Assembly: GCF_963921235.1 (NCBI RefSeq)
Contig: NC_086097.1
Location: 155,622,001-155,686,000, forward strand
Direction of reading: 5' to 3'
From: Mobula hypostoma
Lineage: Eukaryota
DNA: 64,000 bases
Shown piece after piece: positions 3,101 to 61,318 of this stretch. A program made the translations under genes and the position numbers. A model generated the notes under the pieces. It was not told where the DNA came from. It searched no databases and worked only from the letters and a program-made list of their open reading frames with translations. The first letter of the stretch is position 1. Each line of letters opens with the position of its first letter.

Positions 3101-3517
3101 TTGAGCTTTCTGCTCTGTTGATTCTGCTGTCACTCTTAACTTTTCTTATTCTCACTTTCCCTTTATCTCCATCCTTATGTTTCCAGTTCGTCCCCCCCCC
3201 CACTACTTAGTTTAAACACACCCGTGTTGCAGAGGCAAACCTGCCTGCCAGAATGCTGGTGCCCGGCTTATCAAGATGCAACCCGTCCCTTTTGTACAAT
3301 TCATCCTTACCCCGAAACATACCCCAGTGGTCCAAGAATGTAAATCCTTGCTTCCTGCACCAGTTCCTCAGCCACACGTTCAGATCCATTATCTCCCTGT
3401 TCTTGACCACTCCAGCACAGGGAACTGGAAGCAAACTGGAGATAACCACCCTGGAAGTCCTGCTTTTCAGCCTTCTTCCAAGTTCTCTGAAATCATGCTG
3501 TAGAATGTTTTTCCTCC
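147..3517 (-). mobile_element. CR1-clade LINE, 5'-truncated within ORF1, ORF2 disrupted
   Basis: Minus-strand fragments: SGNH-esterase ORF1 end (DGLHL, 3207-3449), APE endonuclease (NARSIRNK, GITET, GDFN, SDH), RT (YLDFQKAFDKVPH, KFADD) and C-terminus. (CTATTGT)n tail at ~147-170; 6-bp TSD TAGTCT at 141-146 and 3518-3523. Confidence 0.95.
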
Positions 3518-17487: not shown

Positions 17488-20400
17488 TACCATGAGATAA
17501 AGGAGCAGAAGTCGGCCATTTGGCCCATCAAGTCTGCTCCACCATTTTATCATGAGCTGATCCATTCACCCATTTAGTCCCACCCCCGGCCTTCTCACCA
17601 TAACCTTTGATGCCCTGGCTACTCAGATACCAATCAGTCTCTACCTTAAATATACCCAATGTCTTGGCCTCCACTGCTGCCCGTGGCAACAAATTCCATA
17701 GATTCACCACCCTCTGGCTAAAAAAAATTATTCACATTTCTGTTCTGAATGGACGCCCTTCAATCCTTAAGTCATGCCCTCTCGTACTAGACTCCTGCAT
17801 CATGGGAAAAAACTTTGCCACATCCACCCTGTCCATGCCTTTCAACATTCGAAATGTTTCTATGAGGTCTCCCCTCATTCTTCTAAGCTCCAAGGAATCC
17901 AGTCCAAGAGCGGACAAACGTTCCTCATATGTTAACGCTCTCATTCCCGGAATTATTCTAGTGAACCTTCTCTGTACCCTCTCCAATGTCAGCACATCCT
18001 TTCTTAAATAAGGAGACCAAAACTGCCCACAGTACTCCAAGTGAGGTCTCACCAGCGCCTTATAGAGCCTCCTGCTCCTATACTCTATTCCTCTAGAAAT
18101 GAATGCCAACATTGCATTCGCCTTCTTCACAACCGATTCAACCTGAAGGTTAACCTTAAGGGTATCCTGTACAAGGACTCCCAAGTCCCGTTGCATCTCA
18201 GAACTTTGAATTCTTTCCCCATTTAAATAATAGTCTGCCCATTTATTTCTTCTGCCAAAGTGCATAACCATACACTTTCCAACGTTGTTTTCATTTGCCA
18301 CTTCTTTGCCCATTCTTCCAATCTATCCAAGTCTCTCTGCAGACTTTCTGTTTCCTCAGCACTACTGGCCCCTCCACCTATCTTTGTATCGTCAGCAAAC
18401 TTAGCCACAAAGCCATCTATTCCATAATCCAAATTGTTGATGTACAATGTAAAAAGAAGCGGCCCCAACACCGGCCCCTGTGGAACACCACTGGTAACCG
18501 GCAGCCAACCAGAATAGGATCCCTTTATTCCCACTCTCTGTTTCCTGCCAATCAGCCAACGCTTTATCCACGTATGTAACTTTCCCATAATTCCATGGGC
18601 TCTTATCTTGTTAAGTAGCCTCATGTGTGGCACCTTGTCAAAGGCCTTCTGAAAATCCAAATATACAACATCCACCGCATCTCCCTTGTCTAGCCTACTT
18701 GTAATTTCCTCAAAAAATTGTAATAGGTTTGTCAGGCAGAATTTTCCTTTCAGGAATCCATGCTGAGTTCTGCCTATCTTGTCATATGCCTCTAGGTACT
18801 CTGTAACCTCATCCTTGACAATCGACTCCAACAACTTCCCAACCACCAATGTCAAGCTAACGAGTCTATAATTTCCTTTTTGCTTCCTTGCCCCCTTCTT
18901 AAATAGCGGAGTGACATTTGCAATCTTCCAGTCCTCTGGAACAATGCCAGAATCTATCGACTTTTGAAAGATCAATGCTAATGCCTCCGCAATCTCCACA
19001 GCTACTTCCTTCAGAGCACGAGGGTGCATTCCATCTGGTCCGGGGGATTTATCTACCTTTAGACTATTCAGCTTCCTGAGTACTTTTTCTGTCATAATTG
19101 TGACTGCGCACACTTCTCTTCCCTGTCACCCTTGAGTGTTCGGTATACTGCTGATGTCTTCCTCAGTGAAGACTGATGCAAAATACTCGTTCAGTTCCTC
19201 CGCCATCTCCTTATCTCCCATTATAATTTCTCCAGCATCATTTTCTATCGGTCCTATATCTACTCTCACCTGTCTTTTACTCTTTATATACTTGAAAAAG
19301 CTTTTAGTATCCTCTTTGATATTATCCGCTAACTTCATTTCATAGTTAATCTTTTTCCTCTTAATGACTTTCTTAGTTTCCTTTTGTAAGCTTTTAAAAA
19401 CTTCCCAATCCTCTGTCTTCCCACTAATTTTTGCTTCCTTGTATGCCCTCTCCTTTGCTTTAACTTTGGCTTTGACTTCTCTTGTCAACCACGGTTGCAT
19501 CCTTTTTCCATTCGAAAATTTCTTCTTTTTTGGAATATACCTGTCTTGCACCTTCCTCACTTCTCGCATAAACTCCAGCCACTGCTACTCTGCCGTCCTT
19601 CCCTCCAGTGTCCCTTTCCAGTCAACCTTTGGCCAGATCCTCTCTCATGCCACTGTAATTTCCTTTACTCCACTGAAATACTGACACATTGGATTTCGTC
19701 TTCTCTTTTTCAAATTTCACAGTGAACTCAATCATGTTATGATCACTGCCTCCTAAGGGTTCCTTCACCTCAATCTCTCTAATCACCTCTGGTTCGTTAC
19801 ACAATACCCAATCCAGTACAGCCGATCCCCTAGTGGGCTCAACAACAAGCTGTTCTAAAAAGCCATCTCGAAGACATTCTACAAATTCTCTCTCTTGAGA
19901 TCCAGTGCCGACCTGATTTTCCCAATCCACTCGCATGTTAAAATCCCCCACAATTATCATAACACTGCCCTTCTGACAAGCCTTTTCTATTTCAGAGAAA
20001 CATAGAAACATAGAAAATAGGTGCAGGAGTAGGCCATTCGGCCCTTCGAGCCTGCACCGCCATTTATTATGATCATGGCTGATCATCCAACTCAGAACCC
20101 AGCCTTCCCTCCATACCCCCTGACCCCTGTAGCCACAAGGGCCATATCTAACTTCCTTTTAAACATAGCTAATGAACTGGCCTCAACAGTTTGCTGTGGC
20201 AGAGAATTCCACAGATTCACCACTCTCTGTGTGAAGAAGTTTTTCCTAACCTCGGTCCTAAAAGGCTTCCCCTCTATCCTCAAACTGTGACCCCTCGTTC
20301 TAGACCTCCCCAACATCGGGAACAATCTTCCCGCATCTAGCCTGTCCAATCCCTTTAGGATCTTATACGTTTCAATCAGATCCCCCCTCAATCTTCTAAA

Positions 20401-20864
20401 TTCCAACGAGTACAAGCCCAGTTCATCCAGTCTTTCTTCATATGAAAGACCTGCCATCCCAGGAATCAATCTGGTGAACCTTCTTTGTACTCCCTCTATG
20501 GCAAAGATGTCTTTCCTCAGATTAGGGGACCAAAACTGCACACAATACTCCAGGTGTGGTCTCACCAAGGCCTTGTACAACTGCAGTAGTACCTCCCTGC
20601 TCCTGTACTCGAATCCTCTCGCTATAAATGCCAGCATACCGTTCGCCTTTTTCACCGCCTGCTGTACCTGCATGCCCACTTTCAATGACTGGTGTATAAT
20701 GACCTGTTGTAATTTGTAGTCCACATCACTGCAGCTGTTTGGAGGCCTATAAATAACTGCCATCAGGGTCCTTTTACCCCTGCAATTTCTTAGCTGAACC
20801 CATAAAGATTCTGCACCTTCCGATCCTATATCACCTCTTTCTAATGATTTAATATAATTTCTTA
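17488..20864 (-). mobile_element. CR1 LINE inserted into L1 ORF2 (itself interrupted at 19994-20703)
   Basis: APE to RT to 3' UTR fragments (ORFs 19622-20086, 19126-19569, 18223-19113 with KFADD, 17732-18313). L1 reading SLVSPW|LCKIFKD is split exactly across it. Confidence 0.93.
19994..20703 (-). mobile_element. Young CR1 3' fragment nested in another CR1
   Basis: (TTTCTATG)n tail and uninterrupted C-terminal ORF; host reading KLQQ|EIEKACQKG is split across it. Confidence 0.95.
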
Positions 20865-32099: not shown

Positions 32100-33020
32100 G
32101 TTCCTCTGAGTAGTTTAGTCAGAAGCTAAGAAGATGGTAGTATGGGTGACTCAGACAGGTAGAGAGAAGGTTAGAAAAACCAAACTGAAAGGGTTAAAGG
32201 AAACAGATAGACACGGATGCCAAAGTGCACAATGTCACCGCAAAATATTTTGGAGGTGAATTGTGAACTGTTAAAAGTTAAGGTTTTTTGACATCAACAT
32301 CTTATGTGCAAAAAATGATGAAATCCTACAGATTTTAGGAAGTTAAGAAAGAGCTTAAGAAGCAAGATGTTAAAAGAAATTATATTCAGCATTTACAATG
32401 CCACAAAAGAAAATTAGAGGATAGTATTAATGATTGCATGGTACAGAAGTGAGGGGTTAAAATTTCTGGTGCTTTGGACCAGGTTTGGAGTGTGTAGGGC
32501 CTATACAGATAAAATAGGCTGCACCTCATTGGAATGGGGTCTGAAGTCTTTATTGGGAGATTCACAAGCACTGCAGGTGTGGTGGTGTAAGCTTGAAGTA
32601 TTTTAGCAGAGGGATGGGAATGGTGTGGTAGCACTGAGAAGGAGAAGAAAAGTGCACAAATAATTTGGAAAGATAAAAATAAAATGCTACATAGGATCAA
32701 ATAAAATAAATTCGAGAAAGTGTTACATAACGTGAAAATTATGAAAAAGCTTTGGAGAGCTGCATGTGGGAGTATGATACTATGGAAATAACGGAGCTCC
32801 AGTTAAAAGAAATTCAAGAAAAGTTATTCATATCACTTCTAACAAGTTGCTCATGAAAAGTAGGAAAGGTTACAAAACGTCAAGGAGTGTGGAGGCTAGA
32901 AGTATTAATTAAAGAGAATATTGCAGAGCTGGAAATAAAGGAATTCATGGAGGGGGAAGGAAAAAAAGAACTATCAGTTTATAATTTAAAGAATATATTA
33001 ATAAGTGGTCTATGAAGTAT
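32100..33020 (+). mobile_element. Very old CR1 ORF1/ORF2 junction region
   Basis: Eroded SGNH ORF1 codons (WYRSEG..FL..W, RLHL) and APE start (YDT..ITE) spread over several frames. Confidence 0.5.
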
Positions 33021-39559: not shown

Positions 39560-41800
39560 AACAGAAGAAAGCATTTATCCCTCTGGGATTGTGCTAACAT
39601 TTAATATGATCATGGCTGATCACCTACATTATTTGTCTTGATCCTTTCTTTACCTCAAAACTGTTCATATCTTCAGTATAAAAAAAATAACTTTCTAAAA
39701 TGCATTTGATTACTTGGCATACAGTGATGAAGAATTCAACTGGGTCTCCCCTATTCTATGTGAAGAATATACCTTCTTATTCTTCTGTTCTCCATTGAAG
39801 TTAGGTCTAATCCATCTGCTCTATCCTCAGACTTTCCTTTCTTTTGCCTACCACCCTTCTTAAAGAATGGTGTGGCATTTGCAATTTTTTGGTCCTCCAG
39901 AACCATTCAACAATCTCTTCAGCCAACTCTTTCAGAAGCTAAGGCATAGTCCAGGTGAGTTATCTACCTTAAGGCCTTTTAGCTTCCCCAACATCTTCTC
40001 CTTAGATTTAGTGTCTACACTTAATTCTGCACCTTGACATTATTAAAGTTCTGGCATACTACTGGTGTCTTCATGGTAAAGACTGATGCAAAATACTTAT
40101 TGAGTGTGTCCGGAATTTCGTTGTCCCCCATTATTACCTATTCAGTATCACCTTCCAGCAGTATGATACTCACGCTCACCTCTCTTTTACTCTTTATATA
40201 TCAGGAAAAAACTTAAAGAATCCTCTTTTATATTATTGGCTTGTATTCCTTCACATTTCGTCCTTTCCCTCCTTATTGCTTTTTAGATGCCTTCTGTTGG
40301 TTTTTAGAAGTGTCACAATCACGGTTCATCAGCGCAGCAGATACGGAAATTGCACTCGTGAATATGCACGTGTCAGCTAATTATTATTTCATTGTGATAG
40401 TATTTAATTCCATTCATTCCATCGTAGTATTTGTTGAGATTTGGACATGGATATAGCTACGTTTCGTTATCTGCATTCCGCCTTCCCTGAGAAATTGGAC
40501 TGTCGAGTCAACTGACTCTGAAGACTAGCTGTATTCGTTTTATTCTAAGCTGTTCTTTTCAGCCACAGCGTAGGCTACATTTTCAATTTGAGTGTTTTAG
40601 TCAATGGCCCTGTTAGGCCTAGCGTTTATTGTTTTCTTTTTCTCTGTCTGTGAAAGATCGACCCACTTCAGTTTCTCTCACTCCGCACTTGGGCCATATC
40701 CGTACTGGGTGACAAAAAGTTTCCCAATCCTCCAGCTTATTTCTTATTTTAATTTTTCTATATTCTTTTGCTTTTATGCTGTATTTGACTTTCCTTGTCA
40801 GCTACAGTTGCCTTACCTTTTTTGGGATGTGCCTTCTGAATTGCTCAGAACCTCTATCTATTGCTTCTCTGCCTTCATCCCTGCTAGTGTCCCCATCCAA
40901 TCAAATTTGGCCAGCTTCTCTCACGCCTCTGTAGTTCCCTTTACTCCACTGTAATACTGTTACATCTGATTTTATCTTCTCCTTCTCAAACTGTAGGGTG
41001 AATTCTATCATATTATGATCACTGGCTCCTAAGAGCACCTTTACCTTAAGGTCATTACATTACATCCAATCCAGAATTGCTATTCCTTAACAGGCTCAGC
41101 CACAAGTTGCTTTAAAAAGCCATCTCTTAGGTAGTCTATTTTCAAAATCTACCAGCATATTGAAATTCCCCATAACTATTGCAACACTGTCCTTTTCACA
41201 TGCTTTTTCTATCTCCTGTTGTAATTTGTATCCTGGCTACTGTTCGGAGGTCTGTATATAACTTCCACGAGTTTCTTTTTACCCTTGCAGTTTCTTAACT
41301 TTACCCACAAGAGCTCTACATCTTCTACTCCTATATCACCTCTTTCTAACCAATAGAGCCACCCCACCCATCCTTTCGATACAATGTCTATCCTTGGATG
41401 TTAAGCTCCCAACCATGATTTTTTTTTCAGCCACTCTCTGAGATGCCCACAACATCAAAACTGCCAATCTCTAACTGTGTTACAAGATCACCTACCTTAT
41501 CCCACATAATGCATGCATTCAAATATAACACCTTCAGTCCTTCATTTATTGCCACCTGTTACACATTAACTGATCCCACTGATTGATATTTTGCTCTATC
41601 GTCTGTCTTTCCTTCCTCACAGTCTCACTACACACTGCATCTACTTGTATACAAGCTGCCTCATCCTCAGCCGTATCACTTTAGTTCCCAACCACCTGCC
41701 AAATTAGTTTAAACCCTCCCCAAAAGTTCTACAAGCATGCCAACAAGGGCATTGGTTCTTGTTCAGGTGTCATACCTTTCCCATAGGAGATCCCAATAAT
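39560..41800 (-). mobile_element. Old, internally deleted CR1 LINE (ORF1 end to 3' UTR), interrupted by a solo LTR
   Basis: 3' UTR GATCATGGCTGATC at 39609; fragments of RT and APE; ORF1 end GEGLN* at ~41704-41722. Confidence 0.85.
40311..40714. mobile_element. Solo LTR (404 bp) inside CR1
   Basis: Perfect inverted termini TGTCAC...GTGACA; 5-bp TSD AGAAG/AAAAG (1 mismatch); host CR1 resumes at once. Confidence 0.85.
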
Positions 41801-58010: not shown

Positions 58011-58018
58011 AGCAACAC

Positions 58019-61000
58019 AGAAACATAGAAACATAGAAAATAGGTGCAGGAGTAGGCCATTCGGCCCTTCGAGCCTGCACCGCCTTTTATTATGATCATG
58101 GCTGATCATCCAACTCAGAACCCCGCCCCAGCCTTCCCTCCATACCCCCGATCCCCGTAGCCACAAGGGCCATATCTAACTCCCTCTTAAATATAGCCAA
58201 TGAACTGGCCTCAACTGTTTCCTGTGGCAGAGAATTCCACAGATTTACCACTCTCTGTGTGAAGAAGTTTTTCCTAATCTCGGTCCTAAAAGGCTTCCCC
58301 TTTATCCTCAAACTGTGACCCCTCGTTCTGGACTTCCCCAACATCGGGAACAATCTTCCTGCATCTAGCCTGTCCAATCCCTTTAGGATTTTATACGTTT
58401 CAATCAGATCCCCCCTCAATCTTCTAAATTCCAACGAGTACAAGCCCAGTCCATCCAGTCTTTCTTCATATGAAAATCCTGCCATCCCAGGAATCAATCT
58501 GGTGAACCTTCTTTGTACTCCCTCTATGGCAAGGATGTCTTTCCTCAGATTAGGGGACCAAAACTGCACACAATACTCCAGGTGTGGTCTCACCAAGGCC
58601 TTGTACAACTGCAGTAGTACCTCCCTGCTCCTGTACTCGAATCCTCTCGCTATATATGCCAGCATGCCATTTGCCTTTTTCACCGCCTGCTGTACCTGCA
58701 TGCCCACTTTCAATGACTGGTGTATAATGACACCCAGGTCTTGTTGCACCTCCCCTTTTCCTAATCGGCCACCATTCAGATAATAATCTGTTTTCCTATT
58801 TTTGCCACCAAAGTGGATAACTTCACATTTATCCACATTAAATTGCATCTGCCATGAATTTGCCCACTCACCCAACCTATCCAAGTCACTCTGCATCCTC
58901 TTAGCATCCTCCTCACAGCTAACACTGCCACCCAGCTTCATGACATCCGCAAACTTGGAGATGCTGCATTTAATTCCCTCATCCAAGTCATTAATATATA
59001 TTGTAAACAACTGGGGTCCCAGCACTGAGCCTTGCGGTACCCCACTAGTCACCGCCTGCCATTCTGAAAAGGTCCCGTTTATTCCCACTCTTTGCTTCCT
59101 GTCTGCTAACCAATTCTCCATCCACATCAATACCTTACCCCCAATACCGTGTGCTTTAAGTTTGCACACTAATCTCCTGTGTGGGACCTTGTCAAAAGCC
59201 TTTTGAAAATCCAAATATACCACATCCACTGGTTCTCCCCTATCCACTCTACTAGTTACATCCTCAAAAAATTCTATGAGATTCGTCAGACATGATTTTC
59301 CTTTCACAAATCCATGCTGACTTTGTCCGATCATTTCTCCGCTTTCCAAATGTGCTGTTATCACATCCTTGATAACTGACTCCAGCAGTTTCCCCACCAC
59401 CGACGTTAGGCTAACTGGTCTATAATTCCCCGGTTTCTCTCTCCCTCCTTTTTTAAAAAGTGGGGTTACATTAGCCACCCTCCAATCCTCAGGAACTAGT
59501 CCAGAATCTAACGAGTTTTGAAAAATTATCACTAATGCATCCACTATTTCTTGGGCTACTTCCCTAAGCACTCTAGGATGCAGACCATCTGGCCCTGGGG
59601 ATTTATTTGCCTTCAATCCCTTCAATTTACCTAACACCACTTCCCTACTAACATGTATTTCGCTCAGTTCCTCCATCTCACTGGACCCTCTGTCCCCTAC
59701 TATTTCTGGAAGATTATTTATGTCCTCCTTAGTGAAGACAGAACCAAAGTAATTATTCAGTTGGTCTGCCATGTCCTTGCTCCCCATAATCAATTCACCT
59801 GTTTCTGTCTGCAGGGGACCTACATTTGTCTTTACCAGTCTTTTCCTTTTTACATATCTATAAAAGCTTTTACAGTCCGTTTTTATGTTCCCTGCCAGTT
59901 TTCTCTCAATCTTTTTTCCCCTTCCTAATTAAGCCCTTTGTCCTCCTCTGCTGAACTCTGAATTTCTCCCAGTCCTCAGGTGAGCCACTTTCTCTGGCTA
60001 ATTTGTATGCTTCTTCTTTGGAATTGATACTATCCCTAATTTCTCTTGTCAGCCACGGGTGCACTACCTTCCTTGATTCATTCTTTTGTCAAACTGGGAT
60101 GAACAATTGTTGTAGTTCATCCATGCAACCTTTAAATGCTTGCCATTGCATATCCACCGTCAATCCTTTAAGTGTCATTTGCCAGTCTATCTTAGCTAAT
60201 TCACGTCTCATACCTTCAAAGTTACCCCTCTTTAAGTTCAGAACCTTTGTTTCTGAATTAACTATGTCACCCTCCATCTTAATGAAGAATTCCACCATAT
60301 TATGGTCACTCTTACCCAAGGGGTCTCTCACGACAAGATTGCTAATTAACCCTTCCTCATTGCTCAAAACCCAGTCCAGAATAGCCTGCTCTCTAGTTGG
60401 TTCCTCGACATGTTGGTTCAAAAAACCATCCCGCATACATTCCAAGAAATCCTCTTCCTCAGCACCTTTACCAATTTGGTTCACCCAATCTACATGTAGA
60501 TTGAAGTCACCCATTATAACTGCTGTTCCTTTATTGCACACATTTCTAATTTCCTGTTTAATACTATCTCCGACCTCACTACTACTGTTAGGTGGCCTGT
60601 ACACAACTCCCACCAGCATCTTCTGCCCCTTAGTGTTATGCAGCTCTACCCATATCGATTCCACATCTTCCCGGCTTATGTCCTTCCTTTCTATTGCGTT
60701 AATCTCTTCTTTAACCAGGAACGCCACCCCACCTCCCCTTCCTTCATGTCTATCCCTCCTGAATATTGAATATCCCTGAACGTTGAGCTCCCATCTTTGG
60801 TCACCCTGGAGCCATGTCTCTGTGATCCCAACTATATCATAATCATTAATAACAATCTGCACTTTCAATTCATCCACCTTATTACGAATGCTCCTTGCAT
60901 TGACACACAAAGCCTTCAGGCGCTCTTTTACAACTCTCTTAGCCCTTATACAATTATGTTGAAAAGTGGCCCTTTTTAATGCTTGCCCTGGATTTGTCGG

Positions 61001-61318
61001 CCTGCCACTTTTACTTTTCTCCTTAGTACTTTTTGCTTCTACCCTCACTTTACACCCCTCTGTCTTTCTGCACTGGTTCCCATCCCCCTGTTGTGAACTA
61101 ACCTCCTCATGCCTAGCCTCTTTAATTTGATTCCCACCCCCCAACCATTCTAGTTTAAAGTCACCTCAGTAGCCCTTGCCAATCTCCCTGCCAGGATATT
61201 GGTCCCCCTAGGATTCAAGTGTAACCCGTCCTTTTTGTACAGGTCACGTCTGTGCCAAAAGAGGTCTCAATGATCCAAAAACTTGAATCCCTGCCTCCTG
61301 CTCCAATCCCTCAGCCAC
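58019..61318 (-). mobile_element. Young CR1 LINE, 5'-truncated within ORF1
   Basis: ORF1 end (DGLHLNPRGTNILAGR...TLN*), APE ORF 60089-61144, RT ORF 58096-59793, (TTTCTATG)n tail. Confidence 0.96.
58096..61159 (-). pseudogene. CR1 ORF2 (APE endonuclease + reverse transcriptase), disrupted
   Basis: 351-aa and 565-aa open segments separated by a disrupted stretch at ~59800-60090; RT active site reads FADV rather than FADD. Confidence 0.93.

Follow-up and report, generated by a model that had tools for sequence, protein, structure and literature searches.

A conserved candidate -1 frameshift site without a canonical 3' structure at the ORF1/ORF2 junction of vertebrate CR1 LINEs

Introduction

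How LINEs with two open reading frames translate the second one is described, in passages of PMC3708506, as unclear outside L1 and SART1. The question is raised by an element in the genome of the ray Mobula hypostoma, in which an ORF1 ends within a short overlap with an ORF2 that has no start codon ahead of its endonuclease motifs: by which route could ribosomes enter this ORF2? The window analyzed here is a stretch of 64,000 nucleotides (contig NC_086097.1, positions 155,622,001 to 155,686,000), and all coordinates refer to it. The element belongs to the CR1 group, members of which dominate most vertebrate genomes (passages in PMC13343379). Literature listings and abstract openings contained no report of CR1 frameshifting, although an overlap or a frameshift may be mentioned in Repbase, in Kapitonov and Jurka 2003 or in the chicken and turtle CR1 papers of 1997. 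CR1 is unmentioned in the first 300,000 of the 449,034 characters of PMC5009743; the terms "overlap", "start codon" and "translation" have no occurrences in the main text of PMC13343379; and four passages of the PMC4316615 supplement contain ORF2 3'-end sequence alone, with no junction.

The junction in the Mobula element

Sequence comparison identifies the site as the place where ORF1 and ORF2 meet in a vertebrate CR1 LINE with an esterase ORF1. The parts of the studied copy are the following.

61150..61305, minus strand: ORF1 3' remnant, C-terminus of an SGNH esterase with the DGLH motif and a private stop at 61267
61153..61159, minus strand: slippery heptamer T_TTA_AAC (phase X_XXY_YYZ), at the end of ORF1, which closes with Thr-Leu-Asn
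61150..61152, minus strand: ORF1 stop TAG, directly 3' of the heptamer
61129..61142, minus strand: G-run, candidate unstructured stimulator
60902..61149, minus strand: ATG-free open linker in the -1 frame, from the heptamer site to the NARS motif
60089..60901, minus strand: ORF2 APE endonuclease region, closed by a premature stop
58096..59928, minus strand: ORF2 reverse transcriptase (RT) region of 610 codons, behind a frame break
58016..58095, minus strand: 3' UTR that finishes in a short tail of 8-nt repeats and has no poly(A)

ORF2 carries APE and RT domains (Pfam PF03372/PF14529 and PF00078, respectively), and ORF1 is of the SGNH esterase type as indicated by the DGLH remnant, homologues that match PF13472 and a profile match to PDB 4C1B (4e-44). 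The closest named homologues of the element come from rays and sharks. CR1 elements have a 3' tail of short repeats in place of poly(A), and the 8-nt repeats at ~58040-58016 fit such an end. The junctions described below also resemble, as judged by eye, rows labelled CR1 in the searched parts of PMC13343379. The studied LINE spans ~61305 to 58016 and is 5'-truncated, with an ORF1 remnant ending in ...ATEVTLN-stop. This copy is dead: ORF1 is cut at ~61305 and contains the private stop, and ORF2 is broken by the stop at 60091-60089 and the frame break near 59930. A fragment at 19993-20703 (minus strand) is 95.5% identical to the 3' end of the element.

The description of the junction in the first-pass annotation of this DNA proved accurate. 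The minus strand reads GTG ACT TTA AAC TAG, with TTTAAAC in phase at 61159-61153 and the stop at 61152-61150; the -1 frame is indeed open into the endonuclease (FKLEWLGGGNQ...NARS...TETW, 358 codons with Pfam Exo_endo_phos matches); none of the 86 codons before NARS is an ATG, the first in-frame one being located inside the APE domain; and the G-rich tract that had been claimed 3' of the heptamer is present, its first run of at least four G beginning 11 nt behind the heptamer. Codon 6 of the -1 frame is TTG. This frame is closed by a stop at 61168-61166 and opens after it, resulting in an ORF1/ORF2 overlap of 16 nt that includes the heptamer. Across the 86 linker codons, there are no stops in the -1 frame versus 7 and 10 in the other two frames. 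Of 2000 dinucleotide shuffles of the linker, 3 stay open, which makes the open frame informative, whereas 652 are free of Met, so that the lack of an ATG is uninformative by itself. The string TTTAAAC is common in the window (28 matches on both strands) and is therefore unremarkable as such; phase, position and conservation are what count.

Conservation of the heptamer in CR1 elements

Three further CR1 junctions, from diverged subfamilies, were located in the window by tblastn and blastn.

3207..3216, minus strand: second CR1 subfamily, TGT TTA AAC TAA
41704..41713, minus strand: third, old CR1 copy, GGT TTA AAC TAA
44730..44739, plus strand: fourth, old CR1 copy with a decayed site, GGT TTA AAG TAA

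Another junction, CAT TTA AAC TAG, comes from L002, a single locus from a metagenome scan that encodes a 304-codon ORF1 (~35% identical), with a 25-nt overlap and no ATG in the 35 codons before NARS. Altogether, TTTAAAC is present at four of the five junctions found by homology (the one at 41713 was spotted first in a motif list and afterwards matched by APE homology), and the fifth, an old copy, has TTTAAAG. The codons preceding Leu are ACT, TGT, GGT, GGT and CAT, so that the amino acid changes and the T is constant; with Leu-Asn given and the codon usage of the element applied, T|TTA|AAC would arise by chance with a probability of ~0.014 per lineage. A weak fifth ORF1-like match in the window is found at 32453-32587 (E 0.022). 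Two of the four window copies are 5'-truncated near the junction, at 41713-41750 and 61305 (both minus strand), within ~40 and ~150 nt upstream of it. The viral-contig scans yielded no CR1 and one weak unrelated locus; the first genome-contig scan gave no locus, and the phage search was empty.

Among the listed 40 of 79 rows for contigs assembled from four read runs, no variant falls within 61159-61150, which is a weak indication of constancy, and third positions at 61177-61189, upstream of the heptamer, vary in the same contigs; run X19, with 12 contigs, was too thin for this comparison. A variant at 61023 that would create an in-frame ATG accounts for ~28% of depth in run X5 and is absent in X1.

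Published consensus sequences extend the taxonomic range. Supplementary Table 2 of PMC13343379 consists of ~1000 rows of 400 letters each, most junctions lying beyond their reach, and was covered through search matches. The heptamer followed by TAG, TAA or TGA has 12, 8 and 3 matches, respectively, of which 11, 6 and 1 are junctions by eye; these 18 rows, which were thus selected by the motif itself, include halosaur, bowfin, bullfrog, alligator, crocodile, bearded dragon, coelacanth, chimaera, stingray, sawfish, catshark and dogfish. Searches for synonymous heptamer variants gave no junction by eye among the matches listed (10 of 12, 20 of 47 and 22 of 25). A search with DGLH codons, for which 22 of 44 places were listed, gave six junction-reaching rows that all carry the heptamer, and this result is not independent because the codons were chosen from rows already seen. 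The leucines of DGLHL, which are equally invariant, use varied codons.

The ends of ORF1 proteins point in the same direction. The set comprises 256 ORF1 homologues, of which 160 match the DGxH pattern and 146 have a tail of 22-40 residues, the rest being fragments or run-ons. Proteins with DGxH[LFIM] and a tail of 22-40 aa (n=137) end in LN in 108 cases, in GN in 7, in KN in 1 and otherwise in 21; the named LN-ending ones include proteins of sharks, rays, Xenopus, Hyla, turtles, Anolis, Varanus, barn swallow and a mormyrid fish. Intact ORF1 copies are numerous in the Anolis family. In L2-type esterases (DGxHP), only one of nine ends in LN, and therefore the esterase fold does not need LN. The residue before LN has 14 identities, yet E, K, Q, M or W, which lack an NNT codon, are found there in 2 of 109 proteins, compared with 48 and 42 at one and two places further upstream; after clustering at 60% tail identity, the count is 0 of 27 against a background of 15% (p=0.011). 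Such scarcity is what one would predict if the heptamer has an invariant T at its start. These conservation counts are not independent because the lineages are related. All seven GN-ending distant ORF1s end in QGN, and one distant ORF1 ends in SKN; known from proteins alone, these ends are compatible with CAG GGA AAC (G_GGA_AAC) and A_AAA_AAC, respectively. These two heptamers and U_UUA_AAC are named among the shiftiest in mammals (passages in PMC5009743). Three broken copies are annotated as run-on proteins in which ...FKL... follows the esterase, two of them reaching the APE domain.

According to the first-pass annotation, frameshifting would be contradicted by an ORF2 outside the -1 frame or by free variation of the Leu-Asn codons. 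ORF2 lies in the -1 frame, and TTA AAC is kept across families while the neighboring codons vary, to an extent that exceeds the needs of the protein. The one exception is a Ranitomeya (frog) family in which two reading frames decode to the imperfect heptamer G_UUA_AAY; G_UU(A) is a listed natural variant, of a type listed for equine arteritis virus.

The region downstream of the heptamer

Of the features of canonical -1 signals, a phased heptamer within the overlap is present, and a stem-loop or pseudoknot 5-9 nt downstream was not found. No stable fold was predicted behind the heptamer in 15 tests (5 junctions by 3 lengths; z from -1.0 to +1.4) with a folding program that ignores pseudoknots, the region being purine-rich. 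An Rfam search returned no frameshift element and one chance match.

The other candidate feature is the G-run. A run of at least four G begins 11, 9, 11 and 11 nt behind the heptamer at the first, second, fourth and fifth of the five junctions and is missing at the third; for comparison, GGGG is present in 5.6% of the element's 10-nt windows. Judged by eye, the onset in the 18 consensus rows is at +10/+11 in 9, elsewhere between +4 and +14 in 5, and there is no such run in 4, all these spacings being approximate because the rows drop columns. The G-run encodes Gly-x-Gly in ORF2, so it may have a role in the protein. Small indels at the G-run reach up to ~3% of depth in DNA contigs. In two of three window copies, the best predicted duplex of the G-run, G-U rich and obtained without a control, is with the 3' UTR, the partners being 58040-58060 (minus strand) and ~47735 (plus strand); we draw no conclusion from this pairing.

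Frameshifting and alternative routes to ORF2

The junction carries a genuine signal, deeply conserved within a family of elements that is already known, and this signal is best read as a -1 frameshift site without a canonical 3' structure. We consider it likely that programmed -1 frameshifting at U_UUA_AAC gives rise to an esterase-APE-RT fusion. Under this scenario, most ribosomes would terminate at the ORF1 stop and free the ORF1 esterase, whereas a minority, carrying tRNA-Leu and tRNA-Asn, would shift backward by one base on U_UUA_AAC, read ...TLN-LEWLGG..., traverse the variable linker and yield an ORF1-APE-RT fusion. Slippage would thus set a low ORF2:ORF1 ratio in the gag-pol style. A local hairpin is probably not what stimulates the shift; the candidates are the stop next to the heptamer and the G-run that lies 10-11 nt downstream. 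The gag-pol-style fusion that the first-pass annotation proposed is supported by the phase, the overlap, the open linker and the conservation, from which we infer the frameshifting itself.

The main alternative is termination followed by reinitiation, be it at a UAAUG as in SART1, at a linker AUG or without any AUG as in L1, with the conserved letters serving as a termination/restart context. There is precedent, given that SART1 uses UAAUG coupling (passages in PMC3708506) and L1 ORF2 tolerates the loss of its AUG (passages in PMC1965478 and PMC5009743). Within CR1, 3 of the 18 consensus rows have a TAATG whose AUG is in the -1 frame, and linker methionines occur in several families. A linker AUG in some CR1 families is real: among nine ORF2-type database proteins, a set biased toward Met because gene callers require ATG, eight have a Met upstream of NARS, in five of the nine at -27 or -28. 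The frog linker Met varies between copies. Hence the expectation that CR1 has no AUG upstream of the endonuclease was borne out in that none is conserved, and failed for those families that have a linker Met or TAATG. However, TAATG is missing from 15 of the 18 rows and UAAUG from all five junctions examined directly (the studied copy reads TAGAA), the TTG at codon 6 is not conserved, and both the studied copy and L002 lack an in-frame ATG before NARS. Moreover, reinitiation predicts neither the fixed -1 phase, nor a linker open from the heptamer on, nor the T before Leu, nor the QGN alternative. We regard this route as unlikely.

It is also conceivable, albeit very improbable, that the motif is a by-product, with Leu-Asn kept for the last helix of the esterase, the overlapping F-K-L of ORF2 fixing the codons, and ORF2 made in some other way. 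In the alignment, Leu seems to lie on the hydrophobic side of the final helix and might also be retained for helix packing, and dual coding of L-N-stop and F-K-L alone would force TTTAAAY. Nevertheless, there is no start upstream of F-K-L since a stop closes the -1 frame two codons before it; AAT variants, which dual coding permits, are absent among the junction matches listed from PMC13343379; and L2 esterases do without LN, with Gly or Lys taking the place of Leu in distant families. The least probable route, which we find hardly plausible, is splicing to a ...CTAG acceptor or slippage during transcription of the T/A or G runs. A pyrimidine precedes TAG in many families and the G-run shows the indels mentioned above, but TAA or TGA replaces TAG in 3 of the 4 window copies and 7 of the 18 consensus rows, so that the acceptor is lost, neither the T run nor the A run exceeds three letters, and the indels occur in DNA contigs.

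If frameshifting is the mechanism, CR1 gains gag-pol logic, the expected replicase becomes an esterase-APE-RT fusion, the inconsistent annotations of ORF2 starts are explained and, possibly, a structure-free frameshift signal is supplied. A broader generalization can be offered tentatively and is itself rather doubtful: all esterase-type vertebrate CR1 might make RT solely as a fusion, via an ancient, structure-free -1 frameshift driven by the adjacent stop and a fixed-distance G-run that binds a host or element protein, with invertebrate relatives using other heptamers or stop readthrough.

Junctions in other LINEs

For comparison, of the 158 in bacterial genome bins, 80 host-derived LINE loci were retained, and 41 of all 82 loci include the APE start. 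The upstream frame spans 150 codons or more in 18 of them; in these, ORF2 is in the -1 frame 10 times (including L002 and the single-ORF-like L052), in the same frame 6 times and in the +1 frame twice. Four of the -1 loci (L006, L018, L041 and L047) contain an in-phase U_UUU_UUA in the overlap with no Met behind it, L010 has an in-phase A_AAU_UUA followed by the stop, and L011, L056 and L057 lack a canonical heptamer. In the RT frame, in-phase heptamers account for 2 of 607 codons.

An in-phase U_UUU_UUA or A_AAU_UUA closes ORF1, and ORF2 follows in the -1 frame, in L006:1297, L018:398, L041:3483, L042:3483, L047:3468 and L010:2425, all of them LINEs of the non-esterase type. A different arrangement is seen in L031:1438, L046:1523 and L081:1088, where an ORF1 of 362-417 codons is in frame with an ATG-less ORF2 and separated from it by TGA followed by CTA; TGA CTA is a known readthrough context. 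The same in-frame arrangement in L035:500 is separated by TAG G. A 2A-like PGP motif precedes APE in the single-ORF LINEs L028, L029, L033, L034, L050, L052, L063, L064 and L066; single-ORF LINEs with such a motif are described in passages of PMC3708506. Many genome records of bacteria and archaea are contaminated with LINE DNA from animals (L003-L082; proteins P0016 and P0129), including proteins labelled Pseudomonas and Carnobacterium.

Comparison with known recoding systems

The closest counterpart of the CR1 site by sequence is the 1a/1b junction of the coronavirus IBV, which has the same heptamer, U_UUA_AAC, in the same phase (passages in PMC5009743). In organization, gag-pol of Rous sarcoma virus resembles CR1 in having a structural ORF upstream, a polymerase in the -1 frame and a stop close behind. 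Unlike these viral sites, CR1 has no predicted pseudoknot or hairpin 5-9 nt downstream, and it is a non-LTR element that lacks a protease and whose ORF1 encodes an esterase. Among APE-type non-LTR elements, TRE5-A and TRE3-A of Dictyostelium need a -1 frameshift for ORF2 according to a figure legend in a review (PMC5911963); these belong to another lineage and host, target tRNA genes and have a non-esterase ORF1.

With respect to the putative stimulator, Semliki Forest virus has an unstructured 3' one, and the protein-stimulated sites of arteriviruses and cardioviruses have a signal 11-14 nt behind the shift site that consists of linear RNA and a trans factor (passages in PMC5009743). The likeness of CR1 to the latter is in spacing alone and is an analogy, the CR1 motif being G-rich and its factor hypothetical. 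Finally, L1, SART1 and the single-ORF CR1/L2 elements with 2A share with the CR1 site the problem of obtaining low-level ORF2 product from one LINE RNA (passages in PMC3708506). Those elements yield separate proteins, by reinitiation or skipping, whereas the CR1 site predicts a fusion.
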